DNA of 64,000 nucleotides from an uncultured Planctomycetales bacterium (GCA_964474085.1 CAYYRJ010000001.1:27631-91630), one strand, 5' to 3'. Positions 23,861-37,901 are shown, counted from the first letter of the stretch. The notes: a model not told the origin generated them from the letters alone. A program made the numbers and translations.

Positions 23861-25486
23861 ATGCCGCAAAACAGTAAAATTGAAAAGAAGTTTCTTCTTT
23901 TGATGGGTGCCATTATTGTCTTGTTTCTGTTGGTCTGGTTTTTTTCTGCTCGAAGTTTTACCGGCTGGGGGGATGAAATTACCCATTTTTCGACGGCCAA
24001 GGGACTTGTCGAGACCGGGGAATATAGAACATGGGCTTTTGATAAAGGATATGCCAACCCCTATCTTTATACACGAGGGCTTGTGATTACGTATCTTGCG
24101 AGTATAGTTTATAAAATTTCAGGCTTGTCTCTTTTGGCCTTTCGCGTGATCCCTCTTGTTTTTGTAATGTTGACATTTTTAACTTTTGCACTTTATATCC
24201 GTTTTCGACATCGGGCTACAGCTAAAGCTCTAGTGTATGCGGCGATTTTCTTTTTTGGGCAGGCATTTATTTTTGAACAGTCAGTCTATGTCAGAGTCTA
24301 TGCGCCGCTAGGTTGGTTTATGGTTATGACTTTGATCCTTTTTTGGGAATCTGCCGTCGCTTTTGGAAAACGAAATCTTGTGTCAGGGGTTTGGTTTTTG
24401 GTGGGAAGTCTGTTTCTGCTTATTTTGCCGGCAGCAGATCATTGGCAGGTCTCCCATATCGCAATTTATTTTTTGGGATTTCTTTTAACATGGCCTGTAT
24501 TTTTGAATATCTTTCTAAAGTTCGACGATAGATTTAGCATAAGGGTAAAGATTTTTTGGATAGGCAGCATTATTTTACTTGCGCCGTTTCTTGTTTTTTT
24601 CTTGGATTTGAGTATGGCGCATTTGATTATGAATACAAAAAAGCTTGTTTTGGGGCGTAATTATGTGACGTATTGGGACAATTTGGTAGGGTTAGTCCGT
24701 TATGTTTTGGCCTTGAATGTTTGTTTTTTAGGTCTTCATTGGGCGATGCAAATACTGAGAAAAAATAAAAGATTGGACTTTTATTCTTGGCTTTTTTATA
24801 CGGGTATTATCTCAGGAATCTTAATAGGACTTTTTAACCCGCATAATCATATATTTTATTCGCGATTCTTTTATGTTTCGGTTGTGTTGGCTGGGTTAGG
24901 GTTTTCCCAAATGTTGCTTCGTCTTCAATTATCTAAAATAGCAATGCGATGGGTTCTCGGTATTTTTATTCTTTTGAATACAAGCTTGTTTGGGGTAAAT
25001 GTTTATTATGAACGCAGTAATATTCGTATTGCCATATCGTGGCTTGAAAAAAATTTAAAGCAAGACGATGCCCTTTTGGTTTTTGCCAGTCAGTTGGAGC
25101 TCCACGGCGGAAAGTCTTTACTGCCTCGGACCTACTCAGTGGCCCCCAGTCAAGATCCGATGGAGATTGTAAAATTGCTGGAACGATTAGAAACAAGTTT
25201 GGCTAATGAAATTTATTTTTTATATACTGACGAATACCAATTTCGCGATTATCTTTATTTGTTAACCGTCGGGGAGGACCGCAGCGCGCCTAATGATCTG
25301 TTCCGCCAGCTTCAAGAAGTAGTTTTTTCGAAACCCGTAATTTCAGGATTACGGTCGTGTAATCTTGTGAGGTACAAAAAAGCTGATCTCGTTGCAGCGT
25401 TGCAAAAATTATTGCAGGAAGGGTATCCATCGCAATTTAAAGCACCGGAGAAAAGAATTTTGAAAAAGATTTTCAAGCTTCGATGA
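23861..25486 (+). CDS. GT-C fold membrane glycosyltransferase (ArnT/PMT family-like)
   Basis: 541 aa, about 12 predicted TM helices, first extracytoplasmic loop with acidic DE motif (GWGDEITH). Strong RBS AAGGAGAAATAGG. Confidence 0.55.
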   Translation: MPQNSKIEKKFLLLMGAIIVLFLLVWFFSARSFTGWGDEITHFSTAKGLVETGEYRTWAFDKGYANPYLYTRGLVITYLASIVYKISGLSLLAFRVIPLVFVMLTFLTFALYIRFRHRATAKALVYAAIFFFGQAFIFEQSVYVRVYAPLGWFMVMTLILFWESAVAFGKRNLVSGVWFLVGSLFLLILPAADHWQVSHIAIYFLGFLLTWPVFLNIFLKFDDRFSIRVKIFWIGSIILLAPFLVFFLDLSMAHLIMNTKKLVLGRNYVTYWDNLVGLVRYVLALNVCFLGLHWAMQILRKNKRLDFYSWLFYTGIISGILIGLFNPHNHIFYSRFFYVSVVLAGLGFSQMLLRLQLSKIAMRWVLGIFILLNTSLFGVNVYYERSNIRIAISWLEKNLKQDDALLVFASQLELHGGKSLLPRTYSVAPSQDPMEIVKLLERLETSLANEIYFLYTDEYQFRDYLYLLTVGEDRSAPNDLFRQLQEVVFSKPVISGLRSCNLVRYKKADLVAALQKLLQEGYPSQFKAPEKRILKKIFKLR

Positions 25487-25535: not shown

Positions 25536-27644
25536 ATGCGGGCATTATTATCTGTATTAGAAGAGTCTGTCTTGTTCATTGAATGGCTTGATACAGGAAG
25601 CTTGTTTTTTGAAGTCATCCCGTATTTTTTGAGGCATGGAAGAAAGATATCCAAAACGATTTTTGTTTTTGATGCTTCTTTAAGTGCGTTGCGTCTAACT
25701 CGATGTGTAAGCTTTTTAATGAAATGGAAAATTGAGCTTGTTCGTTTTGAGCTCTCTGAAATCAGGGACCAGAATAATTTTTCACTGCGGCTGCGTTTGG
25801 ATTATTTTGATATAGGAGCGATCACAGATAAAATTACTGCTAATGCCGCTTTTCAAAATTATATTTGTCACTTTAAAGATCCACAACACTTAAGTCATTA
25901 TCTGGCTAAAGATTTTATCGAATTTGATTTAACGTCTTTGCAACGCCATCGCCAGATTTTGCATGCGATTACACTTGTAAATGTCAGCCGCTGGTATTTG
26001 AAAAATGGAAACTGCGGCATAAAGTTGTTTTTAAAAAAACGCTGTTGGCCTGAAATTTTGCAAGAATATGCGCGTGATTTGAATGTTGTTCTGGTTTTTG
26101 CATTGCCTTTTTACAATTTTGCTTTTGATACAAAAAGAGCTGTACGTCAGTTTTTAGCACGTTATGTTCATTGGGGTATTTTTTTCTTGCGAAACATAAA
26201 GTTTGTTTTTCGGAAAATCCATGTTCGTAATGCGGTTTGCCAAAGAGGCGATGTATCAAAAATATTGAAATATAAATTGGGTGTTGAGTATTATGGCCAT
26301 TTGAATTTAGAAAGAAAGGATGCGTTTTCAGATTTATTTTTTTATTCCCAATCTCAATTAAAGGGAGAGGAGATTACGCTTCTTTTTAGTTTACCGCAGG
26401 ATCCGCTTGATCAAAACAAATCGGTGGAATTACAAAAGCATGATATTTCAGCGTTGGTCCGTTTTCCCAGCGCTAGCCATTTGCCATTGTCTCAAGCTTC
26501 CGTGCATGACCCGTGGTCTGTCCCAGATGCGTGGCATTTGAGTGATCCTTTGCCTAATGTTCAAAGAAATGATAAGTATTTTGCTATTTTACGGAAGAAA
26601 ACAGTTACTTACAATCGTCAGCTAGGGTATTGGAAAGATCTTTTTATAAAAAACAATATCCGTCTGTATACCCACTGGTATAAATATGATGCTAAGCATA
26701 TTCCTCTCGCAGATGCTTTGAAAAGTTTAGGCGGAATATCAGCTCTATATCAGAGGGCTTATGAGTCTCATCCGATCCGGGGATTGTCCATTGTTTCGGA
26801 TGTAGTCTTTTGTTATAGTAAAAATAATTTTGCTATTGAAAAAGACAACCGGTCCGATATTGGTTATCAGGTTGTCACGGGGTTTTTGGGAGATTTTCGT
26901 TTTCCCCATTTAAAAGAGAAAGCTTTGGAGATTGCTAGGCCTTTGCGTGAAAAAGGGGTAAAACGAATTATCGCTTTTTTGGATGAAAACACGCTCGACG
27001 ACGGACGCTGGTTTGTTGGGCATGCTTTCACGCAAAGAAATTATGCTTATTTGATTGATAAAGTTCTTAAAGATCCACGGTACGGGATTATTTTTAAACC
27101 CAAAGTTTCATGGAATCTGCGTCGTCGGCTGGGAGATGTCGCAAAGCAGCTTGATGAATTGCAAAAATGTGGGCGAGGTGTTATTTTGGGAGGCGGTTGT
27201 CTGCAGAATATGCACCCGCCGGCGCTGGCGGCTCTGGCAGCTGACCTAACGATTCACGAATGTTTAAGCGCTGGCTCAGCCGGTGTTGAGGCCGCCCTTG
27301 CGGGGGCGCCAACGTTATTTTTGGACACCGAAGGCTGGCCGGTTAGTCCCTTTTATCAAGGGGGTTTAGGAAAAGTTGTATTTCAGGATTGGCCGTCTTT
27401 ATGGCAGGCCTGCGAAGATTTTTTTGAAAAGCCTGCGGCAAAAGCGTCGATCGGAAATTGTGCGCCTTTTTTAAGTGAAATAGACCCGTTTCGTGACGGA
27501 CGTGCCGCCGAGCGTATGGGGACTTATTTGAAATGGCTGCTTAACGGTTTAAACGCCGGTTTGCCGCGTCAAGAGGTGTTGGCAGATGCCGCAGAAAAGT
27601 ACACAAAACTTTGGGGTAAAGATAAGATCCATTTAAAAAACTAA
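25536..27644 (+). CDS. hypothetical protein (702 aa), possibly a GT-B-like / capsule-biosynthesis-like C-terminal domain
   Basis: Long ORF. C-terminal GGG...HP...SAG.EAAL.G.P segment loosely resembles nucleotide-sugar binding regions. Nothing diagnostic. Confidence 0.4.
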   Translation: MRALLSVLEESVLFIEWLDTGSLFFEVIPYFLRHGRKISKTIFVFDASLSALRLTRCVSFLMKWKIELVRFELSEIRDQNNFSLRLRLDYFDIGAITDKITANAAFQNYICHFKDPQHLSHYLAKDFIEFDLTSLQRHRQILHAITLVNVSRWYLKNGNCGIKLFLKKRCWPEILQEYARDLNVVLVFALPFYNFAFDTKRAVRQFLARYVHWGIFFLRNIKFVFRKIHVRNAVCQRGDVSKILKYKLGVEYYGHLNLERKDAFSDLFFYSQSQLKGEEITLLFSLPQDPLDQNKSVELQKHDISALVRFPSASHLPLSQASVHDPWSVPDAWHLSDPLPNVQRNDKYFAILRKKTVTYNRQLGYWKDLFIKNNIRLYTHWYKYDAKHIPLADALKSLGGISALYQRAYESHPIRGLSIVSDVVFCYSKNNFAIEKDNRSDIGYQVVTGFLGDFRFPHLKEKALEIARPLREKGVKRIIAFLDENTLDDGRWFVGHAFTQRNYAYLIDKVLKDPRYGIIFKPKVSWNLRRRLGDVAKQLDELQKCGRGVILGGGCLQNMHPPALAALAADLTIHECLSAGSAGVEAALAGAPTLFLDTEGWPVSPFYQGGLGKVVFQDWPSLWQACEDFFEKPAAKASIGNCAPFLSEIDPFRDGRAAERMGTYLKWLLNGLNAGLPRQEVLADAAEKYTKLWGKDKIHLKN

Positions 27645-30391: not shown

Positions 30392-32575
30392 ATGAATCTA
30401 TATCAAAATAATGCGTTTAGAGTTTTAGGGCTTTTGACCAATGCGACGACGGCCGAAATTGTCGCGCGTGCCAACGAAATCAAGGTCAAAAAGTCGGTAA
30501 ATTTTGACGGCGGCTACCAGTATGACTTTCCGTGGTTAGGCGTTCTTGATCGCAGTGAGGAAAATATTGCCAGCGCCCTTCAGCGGCTCGAAGACCCTGT
30601 CCGGCGGATTAAGCAGGAACTTTCCTGGTTTTGGCTGCAGTCAGACGCTGACCGTCAGGCCCTTAAAGCATTGTCAGAGCAGCAGTTAAAAAACGCTTTT
30701 GCCATTTGGCTTAAAGAGAGCGGTTTGACTGAAAGCAATCTCTGCGAAAAAGAAATTTCGCCGGCAACGACCCCGGAGGCTTTAGTTGCTTTGCATAATC
30801 TTTTTGTCCTTTTTCAATCGACTCTTTTACGCAATGAAATTAATGCCGGCCAAGGTGAGGCTTTTGTCCTTTTGGGGAATGATACGAATTCCCAGGAGAA
30901 TTGGGCTATTGCTTTAAGAGTTTTTAATTTTTTGCATACCAATGAAAAGTTTTGGGAATTGGTCAAGAAGCGCATCGACGCTATGCAGGACCGGCGCGTA
31001 CAAAATATTTCGATGGAAGAGATTAAAGAAAGCGCGCTTAATAATGCTCTTTCAGGTCATTTTTTTCTCATGACTAAAGCGTTGGGCAACAAAGATTTAC
31101 CGATGTTAGATAAGCATATCGAAATCCTTGAAAACGCCAATATGCCGGTTGACCTTTATAAGTCAGGTTTAAATTTGGTTCTCAACACGCGCATTGAGAG
31201 CATCAATGCGCTTTGTGATGAATTTGTCCGCGAAAGAAAAGTCGCTGAAGACAAAGGCGACGGGTCGCTTTATAAAAGCCTTTTCTACAAATATCGGGAT
31301 AGCGCTAAACCGTTGATTGACGACTGTAATATCGTTGACCGCAAGGGGATGACGGATTTTGGCGTTTCGCGCGAAAAATTTGCCAAGTCGTTTCAGCAAT
31401 TGTCTTGGAAGCTTAATAAAAGCGGGGATGCTCTGGGTGCATTGGAAAGCATGAATGAAGCGTACAAGAATTTATACTCGGACGCTTTAAAAATGGAATG
31501 CGAAAAAGACGCAGAACGCATCATTAAAGATGCTATTGAGCAATACAGTGACGATGCCACCAAGTTGATTGCCCCGGCAAACGGCAAAGCCCCGCTTGAT
31601 CAGGTTTTAAATATCAAAGAGCAATATCTTAATCAGGTCAAATCGGTGTTTTCTACCGGCGAAGTTTTTATGACCGATAAACTCGAAGGGTTGCTTCGCG
31701 AGCTTGTCGCCAAGGAGCTTCAGCTGATTTCTGTCGAGGTGCATGACAAATATCAAGCGTACGAGCATGCAGACGAAATTATTAAAGAAGCGATGGATTG
31801 GGCAGACCAGGCTAACAATGACGCGTTTAAAAAAGAGCTGGAAGCCGTCAAAAGAGATTGGTTGGAAGGGATTGAAACACGAACCACAAAGCCTCGTATT
31901 ATTATCGAGGAGTCACGACAAAAACCGGTATTTGCATGGGCTGTGGGGATGGCCCTTATTGTCGCGGCGATCTTTTCGGTCGTTGTTGCGATACAGGTAT
32001 CATCCAAAACGCCGCTTCCACCGTCGACAGTGACCGCTAAAACATCAGCCTCGCAAGAGGAGCCGATGAAGTCTTCATCGCAAAAGATTGTTTTACCCTC
32101 AAGTCCGTCGACGAGTGCGCCATCAATGGCGATAAAGGCCGCTGCTGCTGTTATTGCCGTCGCCCCGGCTGTTTTGCCGTCGCAGGCACAAGCTCAAAGC
32201 GCTCGTGAAAATCCTTTGCCTGTCGTTGTTGAAATGCCTCTGTCTGTGCAAGACGAAACTCTGATTGCCGAGGCTGCAGAGGTCAAATCCCAAATTTCCG
32301 CCCACAAGGATAAGATCAAAAGCATGGAGACTGAGCTTGAGATGCTTAGGCGGGAAAATGAGGTCCGTCAGGCCTCGATTGACCGGCTCGACAATAAGAT
32401 CGGTACCAACCCTGACAGCGTTGAATATAATTTTTGGGTCAATGAGCATAATGAGCTAGTCCGTGAACAAAATCAGGCTATCGAAGTCTCAAAAGAAAAG
32501 TATCGACAATACCAAGAAGAGTTCAAACGTCAGCAAGAGATGATCATGTCCTATAACGAACGTTTTGCACGATAA
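30392..32575 (+). CDS. membrane-anchored J-like domain protein with a long coiled-coil region and one TM helix
   Basis: N-terminus NAFRVLGLL...AEIVARANEI...ALQRLEDPVRRIKQEL aligns to J-domain helices II and IV, but there is no HPD tripeptide. TM helix VFAWAVGMALIVAAIFSVVVAIQV near residue 515. Pro/Ser/Ala-rich linker and a C-terminal heptad coiled coil. Good RBS. Confidence 0.6.
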   Translation: MNLYQNNAFRVLGLLTNATTAEIVARANEIKVKKSVNFDGGYQYDFPWLGVLDRSEENIASALQRLEDPVRRIKQELSWFWLQSDADRQALKALSEQQLKNAFAIWLKESGLTESNLCEKEISPATTPEALVALHNLFVLFQSTLLRNEINAGQGEAFVLLGNDTNSQENWAIALRVFNFLHTNEKFWELVKKRIDAMQDRRVQNISMEEIKESALNNALSGHFFLMTKALGNKDLPMLDKHIEILENANMPVDLYKSGLNLVLNTRIESINALCDEFVRERKVAEDKGDGSLYKSLFYKYRDSAKPLIDDCNIVDRKGMTDFGVSREKFAKSFQQLSWKLNKSGDALGALESMNEAYKNLYSDALKMECEKDAERIIKDAIEQYSDDATKLIAPANGKAPLDQVLNIKEQYLNQVKSVFSTGEVFMTDKLEGLLRELVAKELQLISVEVHDKYQAYEHADEIIKEAMDWADQANNDAFKKELEAVKRDWLEGIETRTTKPRIIIEESRQKPVFAWAVGMALIVAAIFSVVVAIQVSSKTPLPPSTVTAKTSASQEEPMKSSSQKIVLPSSPSTSAPSMAIKAAAAVIAVAPAVLPSQAQAQSARENPLPVVVEMPLSVQDETLIAEAAEVKSQISAHKDKIKSMETELEMLRRENEVRQASIDRLDNKIGTNPDSVEYNFWVNEHNELVREQNQAIEVSKEKYRQYQEEFKRQQEMIMSYNERFAR

Positions 32576-32606: not shown

Positions 32607-32987
32607 ATGGGTGAAAACGATTCTGAGTATCAGGATTTTGTTGTCGAGATCGCCATTGAATTTTGGCGTTTAGAAAAACGCTTTGGCAAGGCAGGCTCTT
32701 TTTTATCTGCAGAAGAACGACAGCTGTTTGCGGACCAAATGCAAAGAATGCGCCGTGTTCTTGAAAAATACGAGATAGAAATTCGCGATCCCAAAGGCGA
32801 AATCTATATGGATGGCCGCAGCCTAAAAGCGATTTATATCGAAGAAGTTTCCGATTTCCCCGCCGGTGAGTGCCGCATTATTGAAACTGTTAAACCTTGT
32901 GTTTGCTATAAAGGCTGTGTTATTTTTTCAGGTGAAGTTATTGTAGGTCAAGGCAAGACTCCTAAGCCTAACAAGGTCAGCCCATGA
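32607..32987 (+). CDS. small protein, possibly a GrpE-like nucleotide-exchange-factor remnant (helical N-terminus plus beta C-terminus)
   Basis: 126 aa. C-terminal ...CYKGCVIFSGEVIVGQ resembles the GrpE C-terminal beta segment (KGY..RV.RPA.V.V). Its stop overlaps the Hsp70 start (ATGA). Confidence 0.35.
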   Translation: MGENDSEYQDFVVEIAIEFWRLEKRFGKAGSFLSAEERQLFADQMQRMRRVLEKYEIEIRDPKGEIYMDGRSLKAIYIEEVSDFPAGECRIIETVKPCVCYKGCVIFSGEVIVGQGKTPKPNKVSP

Positions 32988-35488
32988 GCCGGCGAACCGT
33001 CGATTTTGGCATTGATTTAGGAACGACAAATTCGGCGATTGCTCTTATGGAGCATGGGCAGGCGAAGGTCTTAAAAAACTTTAAACAAAGTGAAATTACC
33101 CCCTCTGTTGTCCGTATTGATGAAAACGGCAGTGTGATCGTCGGGCAAAGTGCGTATAACCGTCTTTACACGGATCGTGAAAATACATTCTCTGCATTCA
33201 AGTTGCTGATGGGCACGCGCCAGACGAAGAATTTTGTCCGTTCTGGACGTATTTTAAAACCTGAAGAATTGTCCGCTGAAGTCCTCAAAGACCTTAAAGC
33301 GACGGTGCGTTTGCGTCTGCCCGATGAACCGGATATGACGGCGGCGGTGATTACGGTTCCTTGTTATTTTGAAATGACCCAATCCCAGGCGACGAGTGTG
33401 GCGGCAAAACTTGCCGGTATTGAGTTTGCGCCGCTTTTGCAGGAACCGATTGCAGCGTCGATAGCGTACGGCTTTATGGAAAAAATGCCCAAAGGCTATT
33501 GGATTGTTTATGACTTAGGTGGCGGGACTTTTGATGTGGCGCTTTTGTCGGCGAAGGATGGGCATTTGGTTGTCGTTGATCATGATGGTGACAATTATCT
33601 AGGCGGCGGCGATTTTGATTGGCGTATCGTCGAGGAAATTATTTATCCGGTCTTGCGTGAAACGTATCACTTGCCGGGTTTAGGCCGTAATTTAGAGTAT
33701 GGGTTACTTAACGCTGTTCTTAAATACGCTGCCGAAGAGGCAAAAATCAATCTTTCACAAAGTGAAAAGACCGAAATTATTGTCGAGGAAATGGAAAGCC
33801 TCAAAGACCATGACGGCAAAAGGGTGGCTCTTCGCATTGCGTTTAATCGTCAGCAGTTAAATGCAGTTATTGGAGAAGATGTTGAAAAAAGCATACGGTT
33901 GTTTCGTAACCTTTTAAAAAATCAAAAACTTGCCGCCGCAGACGTTGGGCATTTGATTCTTGTTGGAGGGCCGACACAAATTCCTTATATTCGCGAGCGT
34001 TTAAAGGATGAATTTCAGATCCCGATTAATTATTCGGTCGACCCGATGACGGTCGTCGCCAAAGGGGCGGCGATTTACGCTTCCTGCCAACTTCTTGCCC
34101 CGGGCAAGATTCCCACAGATAACAAAGCTCTCAGTGTTCAATTAAACTATGAGCCGATGACAACAGCGCTGCAGGTTAGTGTCGCCGGAAAAATTGTGAG
34201 CGCCAAAGATGCGTCATTGCCTTCGGGGATGAAACTGCAGATTAGAAGTGCTGCCGGCGACTGGCAAAGCGGGATGATAGAAATCCGTGACGGTGTTTTT
34301 TTTGCGTCGTTGTTATTGCAGCCGAATGGTGTTAATACATTTATCCTCGCTTTGTTTGATCAGAGCGCAAATCAGGTGCCTGTCGATGGGGATTCTTTTT
34401 CTATTACACAGGGCATGTCGGTGGGTGCTCCGCCTTTGGCGCGTTCGATTGGTGTTGAATTGCACGACGGGACTTTTGACAGATTGTTGGCCAAAGGCGT
34501 TTCTTTGCCGGTCAAAGCTTCTTATACATATCATGCGGCCAAGGACATTCATCCCGGGCAGGAACAAGAGGCTATTGAAATTCCTGTGCGCGAGGGAGAA
34601 AGTGACCGCTTTGATTTGAATCGGCATTTGGGGACTTTGGTTATTCGCGGGACAGATATAGGGCGCAAAATTCCTGTTAACGCCGACGTGGAAGTCACGA
34701 TCTTTGTCGATCAGTCGCGCAGCGTTTCGGCCGAGGCGTTTATCCCTGTGTTGGACCAGAAATTTTCAATGAAAATCCCGAATATGACCTCGCCCTTGCC
34801 TGAGAGCAAGGATTTTCCGTTGATCCTTGAGCGTCAAGAAAAGCGTTGGAAAGAAATTCAACAGAAGGCCGGGAGTTTAAAAATTTCATTGGCGCAAGCG
34901 GCTGTTTTGGTCAATGGCTATTTTACAGAAATCAATCGTGAAATTAAAGCCGTCAGCGGCTTAGACCCGATTGTCATTGAAAAAGTCGACCGGCGCCTTA
35001 AAGAATTGCAAGAGCATCTTGATGCTGCCGGCAAAATTGTGTTTTGGCCGGCGTTATTGCAGGAATATAAACAGCGTTTTGCCGATGCGATGGATACCGT
35101 CGAGAATTTTGCTGGAAATGTCCAGTACCTGGAGCGTTTGAATTTGTTGAAAAAAGATGCAGATAAAGCAGTTGCTTTAAGTGACAGCAAGCGTTTGAAT
35201 AAGGCCTTGGAAGACATCAATGATTTAAAGTGGGAAATTTTATTTCGACAAAAAGATTTTTGGATTGGAGCTTTTCAGGAGTTGCGGCAAAAAGAGCCCG
35301 AAAAATTTATAAATCCCAAGCGTGCCCATGATTTGCTTGAGGAGGGAGGGCGCGCGCTTTTGCGTCAGGATACCGAGTCGGTGCAAAGCATCACCATTGA
35401 ATTATGGAAACTGATTTCCTCAGATGAGCAAGCGCATATTACGCAGGCGGTCAATACGCGCTCTGGCATCAAAAGAAAAAAATCTTAA
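32984..35488 (+). CDS. atypical Hsp70 family chaperone (DnaK/HscC-like) with an inserted segment and an extended C-terminal helical region
   Basis: NBD motifs GIDLGTTNS, VITVPCYF, DLGGGTFD and ILVGGPTQIP. An SBD-beta-like block (IGVEL.DG.F..L...G..LP......Y...D.....AIEIPV.EGE....LGTLVI.G...G...V.ADVEVTIFVDQSRSVSAEAF). An extra segment of about 100 aa between the NBD and the SBD. About 230 aa of helical C-terminus. Confidence 0.85.
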   Translation: MSRRTVDFGIDLGTTNSAIALMEHGQAKVLKNFKQSEITPSVVRIDENGSVIVGQSAYNRLYTDRENTFSAFKLLMGTRQTKNFVRSGRILKPEELSAEVLKDLKATVRLRLPDEPDMTAAVITVPCYFEMTQSQATSVAAKLAGIEFAPLLQEPIAASIAYGFMEKMPKGYWIVYDLGGGTFDVALLSAKDGHLVVVDHDGDNYLGGGDFDWRIVEEIIYPVLRETYHLPGLGRNLEYGLLNAVLKYAAEEAKINLSQSEKTEIIVEEMESLKDHDGKRVALRIAFNRQQLNAVIGEDVEKSIRLFRNLLKNQKLAAADVGHLILVGGPTQIPYIRERLKDEFQIPINYSVDPMTVVAKGAAIYASCQLLAPGKIPTDNKALSVQLNYEPMTTALQVSVAGKIVSAKDASLPSGMKLQIRSAAGDWQSGMIEIRDGVFFASLLLQPNGVNTFILALFDQSANQVPVDGDSFSITQGMSVGAPPLARSIGVELHDGTFDRLLAKGVSLPVKASYTYHAAKDIHPGQEQEAIEIPVREGESDRFDLNRHLGTLVIRGTDIGRKIPVNADVEVTIFVDQSRSVSAEAFIPVLDQKFSMKIPNMTSPLPESKDFPLILERQEKRWKEIQQKAGSLKISLAQAAVLVNGYFTEINREIKAVSGLDPIVIEKVDRRLKELQEHLDAAGKIVFWPALLQEYKQRFADAMDTVENFAGNVQYLERLNLLKKDADKAVALSDSKRLNKALEDINDLKWEILFRQKDFWIGAFQELRQKEPEKFINPKRAHDLLEEGGRALLRQDTESVQSITIELWKLISSDEQAHITQAVNTRSGIKRKKS

Positions 35489-35498
35489 GGTCTCATAC

Positions 35499-36386
35499 AT
35501 GTCCCGCAATTTTGAAGTTTTGCCGCAATATACCGTGATCCGCGATACCTATACCGTCGAGAACGTTTTGGGTGAAGGGGCTTTTGGTGTTGTCTATAAA
35601 GTCCGCCATAAGTTTCTTGGCATTCAGGCGCTTAAAGTTTTTCATCCCGAAAAATTGTCTGAAAAAATAGCTAGCGATTTTCTCAATGAAGCGGTCATCC
35701 TTTCTAAGATCACGCATCCGAATGTTGTGCGCGTTTTTGAAGCGAACCATTTTGATCTTCAGGGAAAAGGTGTCGCCTACGTGGCGATGGAATATGTCGC
35801 CGGCGGAACGCTTGATGCGTATATCCGTAAAAATGTCCGGCTTGAAATTAATTTGGCACTGCAAATTCAGATGATGATTTGCCGCGGTTTGGCGCACGTT
35901 CATGCTTTTAGCCCGCCTATCATTCATCGGGATGTCAAGCCACAAAATATCATGCTTGATTTGTCGTCGAAGAATTTTGTCGTTAAAGTCTCTGATTTTG
36001 GGCAGGCCCAACACGCGGACCCTTTGACAAAATTGGCCCAGTCGGCCGGGACGCTTGCCTATATGGCCCCGGAGGGTTTTTGGAATTATAAATCGCCCGC
36101 CAGTGATGTGTATTCGGCGGGAATGATTTTATACATTATGTTGACCGGAGTTGCCCCGTTTAAGATTCCGCAGAATCTTGGGGACAAGGACAGGCAAGAA
36201 GTCGAGCGGGCCATACGCAAAGCCCGCAGCACTGATCCTGAGTCTCCGTCGGTGTTCAATCCAAGGATCGATCCGAAGTTAAGTGCGATTGTCCTTAAGT
36301 CGCTCTCTTACGACGCTGCCAAGCGCTATCAGGATGCGGCAGAGTTTTTGTCGGCTTTGGAAAATTATGTTTCGCCGGATAAGTAA
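35499..36386 (+). CDS. Hanks-type serine/threonine protein kinase (cytoplasmic, kinase domain only)
   Basis: GEGAFGVVYK glycine loop, AL-K lysine, HRDVKPQNIML catalytic loop, DFG (SDFGQA), APE motif. ATG 35499. Confidence 0.85.
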   Translation: MSRNFEVLPQYTVIRDTYTVENVLGEGAFGVVYKVRHKFLGIQALKVFHPEKLSEKIASDFLNEAVILSKITHPNVVRVFEANHFDLQGKGVAYVAMEYVAGGTLDAYIRKNVRLEINLALQIQMMICRGLAHVHAFSPPIIHRDVKPQNIMLDLSSKNFVVKVSDFGQAQHADPLTKLAQSAGTLAYMAPEGFWNYKSPASDVYSAGMILYIMLTGVAPFKIPQNLGDKDRQEVERAIRKARSTDPESPSVFNPRIDPKLSAIVLKSLSYDAAKRYQDAAEFLSALENYVSPDK

Positions 36387-36409: not shown

Positions 36410-36754
36410 GTGAACAAAATCATATGTTTGGTTGTTAAAACCGGCCCTTTAAAAGGCCATAAATATTTTGTGAAAGCGGATTGTCCTGTTCTAATCGGGC
36501 GTGGCGAAGAAGCCAATATCCGAATCGATTATGACAAGTTTTGTTCGCGCAGCCATGCGGTGGTTTACTGGGAAAATGATGCCTGTTGCATCAAGGATTT
36601 AAACAGTACCAACGGGACGCATGTCAACAAAGTGCGGATTTTGGGAAATGTGCGTTTGGAAAATAAAAACATCTTGAGCTTTGGCTCAACAGAGGTTGTG
36701 GTTTTTATTTTAGACCACATGAAGGACGCAAAATCATTGATGGACCTTGATTAG
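36410..36754 (+). CDS. FHA domain-containing protein
   Basis: 114 aa. LIGRGEEANIRI....SRSHAV......C.I.DLNSTNGTHVN matches the FHA core (G-R...S-xx-H...NGT). GTG start with AGAAAGGAA RBS. Confidence 0.8.
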   Translation: MNKIICLVVKTGPLKGHKYFVKADCPVLIGRGEEANIRIDYDKFCSRSHAVVYWENDACCIKDLNSTNGTHVNKVRILGNVRLENKNILSFGSTEVVVFILDHMKDAKSLMDLD

Positions 36755-36776
36755 TATAGATGAAGTCTGCGTTGAT

Positions 36777-37901
36777 ATGACAAAAACAAAGATCCTGATC
36801 TGTGGAACGCTCCCGCCGCCGAATTTTGGGCACAGCATGCTTTATAAAGCGCTGATGGAATCCCGTTTTGCCCAAGAGTTTGATATTGTTTTTTTTAACA
36901 TAAAATTTTGGTCGTATGAACAGCACCATAAGGTTACAGCCGCAAAACTTTTTAAATTCGTCCAATATTATTTTCAATTTATCACGTTAATACTTACGAA
37001 ACGGCCGCAGTATGTTTTGTATGCGATCAGTTTTGACAAGATGCCGTTTTTGAAGGATTTTGTTTTTTGCATGACCGCAGAGATTTTGGGTTGTAAAGTT
37101 GTTTTGCATGATATGGGCCAGTATGTGCGTGAGCTTTATGATTCCTCGTCGATGTTTTTCCGCAGCCTGATGCGTTTTATGCTTAAAAGAATGACAGCAA
37201 GCCTTGTCCTAGGGGAATTGACGCGTAAAGTTTACGAGGGGCTTATGCCGAGCGATCGCGTTTATGCGATCCCTGCGGCGACCGCGGATTCTGCAAATTC
37301 TATTTTTCCAGTTGAAGATCGATGGCCCGGCGAAAAAATCAGGGTGCTCTTTTTTTCGTTTTTGCAAAAGTCCAAAGGCATTTGGGTCGCGCTGGAAGCG
37401 ATGCCAAAGGTCATTGCCCAAAATCCCAATGTTTATTTTACTTTTGCCGGCCCCGCCGAGTCGCAGGAGTTTGTTAGGCAAATGAATGATTTTATTGTCC
37501 GCAATCACCTAGAAAAGCATTTTGAATATGTTGGTTATGTCGGTGATGAAGAAAAACGAAGTGAATATTTTCGCAACTGTGATATCTATATCTTCCCGAC
37601 GCTGCGCGATGTTTTTGGGTTAGTCCTTTTGCATGCGATGGCAGAAGGCCGTCCGGTCATCGCTTCTTATGAGGGTGCAATCCCTGAAATTGTCGACGAT
37701 GGCCAAACAGGTTTTCTTTTCCAAAAATCCGATGCTGCGGCTTTGGCAGAAAAAATATTGCTTCTTGCACGCGACCGCCAAGCTCGTGCTATGATGGGCA
37801 AAAATGGGCGGATCAAATATGAGCGGCTTTATACGCTGGATGCGTATGCACAGCGGATGATTGATTTTTTTTCGTCTTTAGATAAACTTAGTAGATATTA
37901 A
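36777..37901 (+). CDS. family 4 (GT-B) glycosyltransferase
   Basis: C-terminal EX7E region (FPTLRDVFGLVLLHAMAEGRPVIASYEGAIPEIVDDGQTGFLF). ATG 36777. The track start, 36747, is TTG. Confidence 0.75.
   Translation: MTKTKILICGTLPPPNFGHSMLYKALMESRFAQEFDIVFFNIKFWSYEQHHKVTAAKLFKFVQYYFQFITLILTKRPQYVLYAISFDKMPFLKDFVFCMTAEILGCKVVLHDMGQYVRELYDSSSMFFRSLMRFMLKRMTASLVLGELTRKVYEGLMPSDRVYAIPAATADSANSIFPVEDRWPGEKIRVLFFSFLQKSKGIWVALEAMPKVIAQNPNVYFTFAGPAESQEFVRQMNDFIVRNHLEKHFEYVGYVGDEEKRSEYFRNCDIYIFPTLRDVFGLVLLHAMAEGRPVIASYEGAIPEIVDDGQTGFLFQKSDAAALAEKILLLARDRQARAMMGKNGRIKYERLYTLDAYAQRMIDFFSSLDKLSRY

Follow-up and report, generated by a model that had tools for sequence, protein, structure and literature searches.

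We report an uncharacterized branch of Hsp70 proteins that is widespread among bacteria and appears to be distinguished by an immunoglobulin (Ig)-like domain placed between the last helix of the nucleotide-binding domain (NBD) and the interdomain linker. The protein studied here is encoded in a 64,000-nucleotide (nt) stretch of DNA from an uncultured Planctomycetales bacterium (GCA_964474085.1 CAYYRJ010000001.1:27631-91630; the whole stretch is henceforth called the window). It is the third gene of a co-directional five-gene module specifying, in order, a membrane protein with a J-like domain, a reduced GrpE-like protein (mini-GrpE), the Hsp70, a Ser/Thr kinase and an FHA protein (Table 1). 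Judged from its sequence, this Hsp70 is probably catalytically competent and full-length, and a member of a prokaryotic clade of its own. That it is encoded beside its own reduced helper proteins and a signaling kinase leads us to favor a dedicated machine over a general folding chaperone.

The Hsp70 and its inserted domain

The NBD is complete; a first-pass annotation of the window had already noted all four of its canonical motifs. Amino acids (aa) 8-373 match the Pfam HSP70 family (PF00012, E 4e-84), and aa 8-367 align to the DnaK NBD in phmmer searches against the PDB. The actin fold with its phosphate-1, phosphate-2 and adenosine motifs and the catalytic Lys, Glu, Asp and Thr are all in place, and the catalytic and phosphate-binding residues (D11, G13, T14, K73, E154, D177, G179-181, T182, D184 and G328-G329) are invariant in 34 family members. 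In the same phmmer searches, a weaker second stretch places aa 487 to ~600 on residues 366/371 to ~490 of the β part of the DnaK substrate-binding domain (SBD-β), and the gap between the two matches spans ~120 residues in the query as against ~15 in DnaK. Profile-profile comparison with DnaK aligns this second region over 90 columns (HHalign 97.4%, E 1.4e-11), bearing out the earlier description of an SBD-β-like block.

The extra length of the protein is not spread over ordinary loops. In a MAFFT alignment with Escherichia coli DnaK, HscA and HscC, it is concentrated in a single block between the NBD and SBD-β (aa 393-487), which has no counterpart in any of the three and is accompanied by a short segment (aa 369-376) lacking in DnaK and HscA. 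The C-terminus adds a surplus of 77-126 residues without counterpart in these references. Eight distant relatives from other phyla show the same single block and likewise the long C-terminus. The insertion of ~100 aa proposed in the first-pass annotation is thus a discrete block by phmmer, by MAFFT and in the distant relatives, and its estimated position (nt 34100-34440) lies close to the measured boundaries of nt 34085-34441.

An AlphaFold2 model of the full-length protein, built from a 34-sequence family alignment (pLDDT 87.3, pTM 0.80), predicts an NBD spanning aa 1-367, a low-confidence tether at aa 371-380, the strands of the insert between aa 383 and 476, a short strand at aa 479-480, an SBD-β of eight strands (aa 489-597) and a C-terminal region of nine helices within aa 608-826, with pLDDT mostly 81-94. 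Modeled alone (aa 368-486, 20 sequences), the insert is again predicted to form a sandwich, with seven strands and a pLDDT of 83, so that both in context and in isolation it is modeled as a domain of its own. Foldseek searches of the PDB with this model recover generic Ig-like folds only (filamin, macroglobulin MG, Rib, PKD, SoxZ and VHH; E >= 4e-4, TM 0.45-0.58). These models indicate that the insert is an autonomous Ig-like domain, a discrete block of ~105-120 aa. We also considered a duplicated SBD-β as its source; this was ruled out by HHalign probabilities of 1.5% against the SBD-β of the family itself and 0.2% against DnaK.

Downstream of the insert and abutting SBD-β, the family has a conserved G-(I/M)-S-V-(A/G)-x-P-P-L segment (G-M-S-V-G-A-P-P-L in the query), at the position where DnaK has VLLLDVTPL. 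Since this linker-like segment directly precedes SBD-β, the Ig-like domain appears to have been inserted between the last NBD helix and the interdomain linker. The structures on which the full model superposes most closely are those of DnaK and BiP with a truncated lid, AMPylated BiP among them (4-5 Å root-mean-square deviation, TMt ~0.80); hence, the NBD and SBD-β are predicted to keep a known Hsp70 arrangement despite the insert.

SBD-β is followed by a helical region in the position of the Hsp70 lid, although its homology to the DnaK lid is itself marginal (HHalign 8.6%). It is about twice as long as the DnaK lid and is conserved across phyla. The helical C-terminal part of ~230 aa lacking an EEVD motif, noted in the first pass, corresponds to these 228 aa; they end in ...SGIKRKKS, with neither an acidic nor an EEVD tail. 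Bacterial DnaK proteins also have no EEVD, and its absence is therefore not diagnostic in a bacterial protein.

Distribution and phylogeny

Searches recovered more than 120 full-length homologs of 823-842 aa, with 100% query coverage and 97-40% identity, most of them from Omnitrophota-type metagenomes and annotated merely as "Hsp70 family protein". Their uniform length excludes a fused or frameshifted open reading frame (ORF). More distant relatives, also of full length and with 28-36% identity, come from Pseudonocardia, Actinophytocola, Reyranella, Byssovorax, Clostridium and Pedobacter and from one Myxococcales and one Bacteroidetes metagenome-assembled genome (MAG); thus, the ~830-aa layout is kept from 97% down to 28% identity across several phyla. 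A scan of genome contigs was swamped by generic Hsp70 patterns, and the family members found there are confined to eight loci (L001-L008). When the insert by itself was used as a profile to search 1.84 billion representative proteins (clustered at 50%), 640 matched at E <= 1e-3, of which 230 reached E <= 1e-10. Nearly all of the 640 are proteins of ~810-855 aa with the domain at ~365-495, or evident fragments of such proteins, and the length is conserved in most of the best 150 of the 640. The exceptions are two giant adhesin-like proteins made up of Big_6 Ig repeats and two variant architectures of the family, a 1544-aa tandem form with two Hsp70 NBDs (P0276) and an N-terminally extended form of 1031 aa (P0358); P0102, with 1254 aa, is another extended variant.

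The protein is not a canonical DnaK, HscA or HscC, as had been supposed in the first pass. It falls far short of the NCBIfam equivalog cut-offs for DnaK (NF001413, 282.9 bits versus 648; TIGR02350, 275.4 versus 822.55) and for HscA (TIGR01991, 252.6 bits versus 708.55; NF003520, 255.7 versus 620), and a Pfam scan of the flanking genes found no isc or hscB genes near it. NBD identity is 35% to DnaK, 39% to HscA and 33% to HscC. In a simple unrooted neighbor-joining tree of 352 NBD columns, which includes one HscA and one HscC sequence, the family is monophyletic in 200 of 200 bootstraps and separate from all three. The nearest reference branch in this tree is the single HscC, with the split uniting it with the family recovered in 160 of the 200 bootstraps.

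The distribution of the family across phyla is patchy. A family member together with the full five-gene module (L090; GCA_013375405.1, P0112) also lies on a contig of a MAG labeled Candidatus Helarchaeota (Asgard archaea), reflecting either a horizontal transfer or a binning error. Reviews recognize three types of prokaryotic Hsp70, namely DnaK, HscA and HscC, with other "DnaK derivatives" regarded as unexplored dark matter (PMC8215388, PMC13580251), and our full-text literature searches found no description of this architecture or module.

The GrpE-like and J-like partners

The gene immediately upstream encodes a protein without a Pfam (PF01025) or NCBIfam match. Its family comprises 184 homologs, two of which, among those listed, are named GrpE by JGI. 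A profile of 27 of these sequences aligns over 71 columns with 57 GrpE proteins drawn from canonical dnaK loci (HHalign 95%, E 3.8e-8), the aligned columns corresponding to residues 128-197 of E. coli GrpE; the control comparison with the J-domain gave 0.1%. The protein hence retains the C-terminal β domain of GrpE and the helices preceding it, and is without the long paired N-terminal helix that serves in dimerization and as a thermosensor. From this homology, we propose that mini-GrpE is a dedicated nucleotide-exchange factor. Searches of 18 family loci with hidden Markov models (HMMs) place it directly upstream of the Hsp70 in 15; mini-GrpE and the J-like domain are each detected beside the Hsp70 in 15 of these loci, in all of the six or more phyla sampled. 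The NBD itself is in keeping with such a partner: the loop at the GrpE-signature region is of full length in the family, which fits the use of a GrpE-type factor, and in the MAFFT alignment the region is missing in HscA and HscC, as has been reported for both (PMC8215388, Mayer 2021).

The first gene of the module specifies a 727-aa protein in which the N-terminal J-like domain is followed by a long helical region, a hydrophobic segment, a stretch rich in Ser, Ala and Pro, and a charged helical C-terminal tail. Hydropathy analysis indicates a strong transmembrane-like segment at aa 512-536 (nt 31925-31999); a weaker Ala/Val-rich hydrophobic stretch lies at aa 577-597. The protein matches no Pfam (including PF00226), NCBIfam or PADLOC family, and phmmer found nothing for it in the PDB. 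The N-terminus has a conserved motif, NAFRvlGL..A..i ... RLxDPvrRl.dElFWFW (in another rendering, NAFRvLGL ... RLEDPvrRi.qElsWFW). Compared with the J-domain, a profile of five of these sequences gave an HHalign probability of 31% in an odd register; with 22 sequences, this rose to 50% in the expected register (E 1.7e-4, 58-67 columns, helices I-IV). None of the 22 aligned sequences has an HPD motif, there being nothing at its position. The four-helix-plus-HPD signature of a genuine J-domain is therefore incomplete, and the alignment is suggestive of a domain that is J-like at best. The domain stands at the N-terminus of a large neighboring gene in 14 of the 18 loci; in L001 it is internal and follows Sel1-like repeats, and L005 has a weak partial match only. 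Homologs of the 727-aa protein from Actinobacteria likewise have Sel1-like repeats upstream of the J-like domain. The J-like profile, when used in a word-indexed search, for the most part recovered short fragments. We propose that the 727-aa protein is a J-protein-like recruiter of the Hsp70.

The Hsp70 has a corresponding alteration. Pro150 (nt 33431-33433), nearly invariant across the family, replaces DnaK Arg167, and HscA and HscC retain the Arg; the FAPLLQEP of the query aligns here with VKRIINEP in DnaK, VLRLLNEP in HscA and AVRLINEP in HscC. Arg167 is reported to contact the HPD aspartate in the DnaK-J-domain complex 5NRO, so that the substitution and the loss of the HPD in the linked J-like protein are mutually consistent.

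Kinase, FHA protein and gene neighborhoods

Downstream of the Hsp70, the module continues with a Hanks-type Ser/Thr kinase devoid of extra domains and a stand-alone phosphothreonine-binding FHA protein. The kinase has two candidate starts: an ATG at 35499, with AAGG before it and the Hsp70 stop 11 nt upstream, and one at 35424, which overlaps the Hsp70 3' end by 65 nt. The short form seems the more likely, since in the long form the kinase domain does not start until aa 43. Every one of the nine other Omnitrophota-type loci has the kinase, which directly follows the Hsp70 in eight; in the ninth (L091), an extra gene for a 241-aa protein intervenes. The FHA gene follows the kinase in eight of these nine loci and is missing in L083/L084. 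This linkage persists at Hsp70 identities as low as 40%. Both proteins are accessories belonging to one branch of the family.

Upstream of the module is an AT-rich intergenic region of 140 nt, and a Shine-Dalgarno-like GGGGAG precedes the ATG of the 727-aa protein; promoter and terminator scans gave background levels and were uninformative. The module lies inside a polysaccharide-biosynthesis cluster encoding RmlB/RmlA-like enzymes, epimerases, a GT4 glycosyltransferase, WecG, Bac_transf and a GDP-mannose dehydratase.

Table 1. Features of the Hsp70 module, with positions counted from the first nucleotide of the window
Feature	Position (nt)	Strand	Extent	Remarks
727-aa membrane protein	30392..32575	+	727 aa	N-terminal J-like domain, aa 1 to ~105 (nt 30392 to ~30706)
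Mini-GrpE	32607..32987	+	126 aa	Stop overlaps Hsp70 start by 4 nt
Hsp70 ORF	32984..35488	+	834 aa	ATG start
Hsp70 NBD	32984..34084	+	aa 1-367	Pfam HSP70 match and PDB alignment to DnaK NBD; catalytic residues intact
Inserted domain, predicted Ig-like β-sandwich	34085..34441	+	aa 368-486	β core aa 383-476 (nt 34130-34411)
SBD-β	34442..34801	+	aa 487-606	Homologous to DnaK substrate-binding β-basket
C-terminal all-helical region and stop codon	34802..35488	+	aa 607-834 (228 aa)	Nine predicted helices
Hanks-type Ser/Thr kinase	35499..36386	+		Pfam Pkinase E 2e-48; HRD, DFG and APE motifs; no extra domains
Stand-alone FHA protein (phosphothreonine-binding)	36410..36754	+	114 aa	Pfam FHA E 1.5e-18

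Several further features of these neighborhoods may be recorded. Over positions 1-56200 of the window, the + strand carries every one of ~50 successive ORFs that are 200 aa or longer, with positive GC skew throughout. Much of the region from 27 to 42 kb consists of sugar-nucleotide and glycosyltransferase genes; the Hsp70 module breaks into this cluster with GC content staying level (0.46 against 0.44). Two large ORFs upstream of the sugar genes, at 23861-25486 (541 aa) and 25536-27644 (702 aa), have no significant Pfam family. The stop codon of the FHA gene is overlapped by a glycosyltransferase gene (36747-37901) that matches Glycos_transf_1 strongly and PF20706, "GT4 glycosyltransferase in conflict systems", only at the borderline (27.0 bits; cut-off 26). 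A gene for an RDD-domain membrane protein, absent from the window, follows the FHA gene in L081 (11955-12605), L088 (9946-10830) and L093 (13789-14469), and could represent an optional sixth component of it. A small HTH_17 (excisionase/MerR-like) gene occurs near the module in L088 (3334-3540), L091 (2631-2822), L094 (5746-5940), L083 and L090; in L088 and L091, the J-like gene comes directly after it. The HTH_17 gene may encode a regulator, or it may point to an integrative element.

Comparison with known Hsp70 systems

With the DnaK/GrpE/DnaJ system, the family shares the NBD fold and its catalytic residues, a homologous SBD-β, a helical lid and linked GrpE-type and J-type partners. It departs from DnaK in the Ig-like domain of ~105 aa between NBD and linker, the lid of about twice the length, a shortened segment in subdomain IB and the change of Arg167 to Pro. 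Where DnaK has a short hydrophobic DVLLLD linker, ~120 residues including a folded domain separate the NBD and SBD-β, and where the DnaK system has a complete GrpE and a canonical J-domain, the family has a GrpE cut to 126 aa and a J-like domain without HPD inside a 727-aa membrane protein.

The HscC of E. coli offers a different parallel, in that it too is a specialized, sporadic Hsp70 encoded adjacent to a dedicated, membrane-anchored J-type protein; its partners are the tail-anchored J-proteins DjlB and DjlC (PMC8215388). In both cases, a segment of NBD lobe I is shortened and Sel1-repeat proteins are part of the system. However, HscC is only 550-580 aa long, lacks the Ig insert and has a shortened lid; it has neither a GrpE-type factor nor a GrpE-signature loop, retains the Arg167 equivalent, and is served by a bona fide J-domain with HP(D/E) in DjlC (PMC8215388). 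With its 834 aa, enlarged lid, linked GrpE-like gene, partner devoid of HPD and separate clade in the neighbor-joining tree, the window protein does not belong to HscC. At the hscC locus of E. coli K-12 (L085, 676000-690000), a set of a Sel1-repeat gene, a DUF1266 gene and a tail-anchored J-protein gene occurs twice (ybeQ-ybeR-djlB and ybeT-ybeU-djlC), and this Sel1 association is echoed in some of the J-like proteins of the family.

A third resemblance is to the Hsp70s of predicted conflict systems, namely CnuD of CoCoNuT and the HSP70+GrpE+DnaJ/TPR theme of the GAP1-N2 GTPases, in which an Hsp70 unit is part of a multigene module, sometimes with GrpE and a DnaJ/TPR-bearing partner and often in defense neighborhoods (PMC11090510, PMC7159879). 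CnuD differs in having degenerate ATPase motifs and in being tied to McrB-type GTPases (PMC11090510), whereas these motifs are invariant in the family, and the GAP1-N2 theme is centered on the GTPase and FNIII-repeat proteins (PMC7159879). No GTPase, McrB/McrC or FNIII gene was found in the window flanks or in ten related contexts. We also considered membership in the GTPase-centric systems of Kaur et al. or in CoCoNuT; the absence of GTPase and McrBC genes from the examined loci rules it out.

Proposed function and alternative explanations

We think that the family probably runs a dedicated, membrane-recruited Hsp70 cycle with phospho-signaling. The J-like protein would recruit the Hsp70 to the membrane, much as DjlB and DjlC do for HscC (PMC8215388). 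The Hsp70 would then clamp a limited set of clients through SBD-β in an ATP-dependent manner, and mini-GrpE would reset its nucleotide state. The Ig-like domain, held on a flexible tether just before the linker, could offer one more surface on which a partner or client docks. A specific client or signal may be linked to the cycle through the enlarged lid and the kinase/FHA pair, the latter of which would couple it to phospho-signaling in the Omnitrophota-type branch. Several observations weigh against this model. The J-domain assignment stands at an HHalign probability of 50% only, and a J-like domain without HPD may provide no ATPase stimulation at all. A four-sequence mini-GrpE profile found no GrpE in the PDB by HMM, the profile-profile comparison alone doing so. 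The kinase and FHA protein were not found in the relatives from Actinobacteria, Proteobacteria, Myxococcota, Firmicutes and Bacteroidota. Finally, defense and mobile genes are frequent neighbors of the relatives, pointing to a role other than housekeeping proteostasis.

These neighbors raise the main, if tentative, alternative, namely that the five-gene module is a conflict or anti-phage system or the cargo of mobile elements. The Hsp70, by means of its Ig domain and SBD, would sense a sign of infection, for instance a phage protein or a sudden rise in unfolded protein, the Ser/Thr kinase would be the effector, and the FHA protein would read or regulate the kinase. This overlaps biochemically with the dedicated signaling cycle and differs from it in biological role. 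In the relatives, the module has other neighbors than in the window, among them AbiEi/AbiEii (PADLOC E 4e-97 and 7e-175), a DpdF/PsyrT-like helicase, an LmuB/PtuA-like ATPase with a PtuB-like HNH protein and a DrmC-like PLD nuclease, besides integrases, a resolvase, a transposase, SNase genes, an nSTAND-type ATPase, and Schlafen-AlbA_2 and SIR2-like genes. At least one defense or mobile gene lies within 10 kb in seven of the ten Omnitrophota-type contexts, and in an eighth (L090) there is an HTH_17 gene only; these ten contexts were inspected and counted by hand, and the count is not a statistical enrichment. The recurrence of the HTH_17 gene nearby, in two loci directly upstream of the module, and the patchy distribution across phyla point the same way, whereas the window has no defense or mobile genes among the flanking genes scanned (~9 kb upstream and 6 kb downstream). 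The best PADLOC matches of the kinase are the defense kinases PD-T4-6 and mad6, which are generic kinase matches, and no PADLOC-DB v2 model matches the Hsp70, mini-GrpE, J-like or FHA protein. Predicted conflict systems that include Hsp70-like units are on record (Kaur et al. 2020, PMC7159879; CoCoNuT CnuD, PMC11090510), as is chaperone-mediated phage sensing (DnaJ with bNACHT25, PMC12169576); yet the conserved core contains no nuclease, NADase or pore-forming effector, and the three-gene core of the other phyla lacks even the kinase. A more specific and somewhat more doubtful version is a chaperone-based immune system, in which an Ig-like sensor Hsp70 and its private J-like and GrpE-like regulators would detect infection-associated proteins at the membrane and switch on a kinase-FHA output. 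If true, DnaK, HscA and HscC would be joined by a fourth functional class among the full-length Hsp70s of prokaryotes, one with an HPD-independent form of J-type regulation; if the link to defense islands holds, a chaperone-driven sensor would be added to the mechanisms of bacterial immunity.

It is improbable that the Hsp70 has no independent cycle and acts as an Hsp110-like holdase or nucleotide-exchange co-chaperone of a canonical DnaK, a role suggested in general terms for the "DnaK derivatives" of prokaryotes (PMC13580251). Like Hsp110 and Grp170, the family has an Hsp70 framework enlarged by an insertion and a longer helical C-terminus, and its linker has diverged (PMC13580251), the linker-like segment being less hydrophobic than the VLLLD of DnaK, and the loss of the Arg167 equivalent could mean that stimulation by J-proteins has been lost. 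Against this, all catalytic residues are invariant and a J-like partner is linked in 15 of the 18 loci. Hsp110 is itself a nucleotide-exchange factor, for which a linked GrpE-like factor would be superfluous, and the private GrpE-like gene therefore makes such a role unlikely. The architectures also differ: Hsp110 and Grp170 are eukaryotic and have their insertions, largely acidic or disordered, within the β-basket and the lid, as with the acidic loop inside SBD-β in Hsp110, whereas in this prokaryotic family the Ig domain precedes both the linker and SBD-β. There remains the reading of the insertion as an artefact of alignment or annotation, be it loop variation, a gene fusion or a frameshift. 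Apart from the fact that HMMER gives the SBD match as a weak second stretch only, nothing favors it, and we regard it as ruled out by the contiguous MAFFT block without counterpart in three reference Hsp70s, the length of ~830 aa in more than 120 homologs and in most of the best 150 of the 640 representative matches of the insert profile, and the confident independent model of the insert.

Implications

The family keeps every element of a working Hsp70 and yet appears to have accommodated a folded domain at the junction of NBD and linker, the hinge of Hsp70 allostery. It thereby offers a natural experiment on how far interdomain allostery tolerates the insertion of a domain, on how extensive the J-domain and GrpE interfaces need to be, and on how Hsp70 motors may be wired to kinases. 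As such, it is a well-defined and widespread part of the dark matter of prokaryotic Hsp70s.

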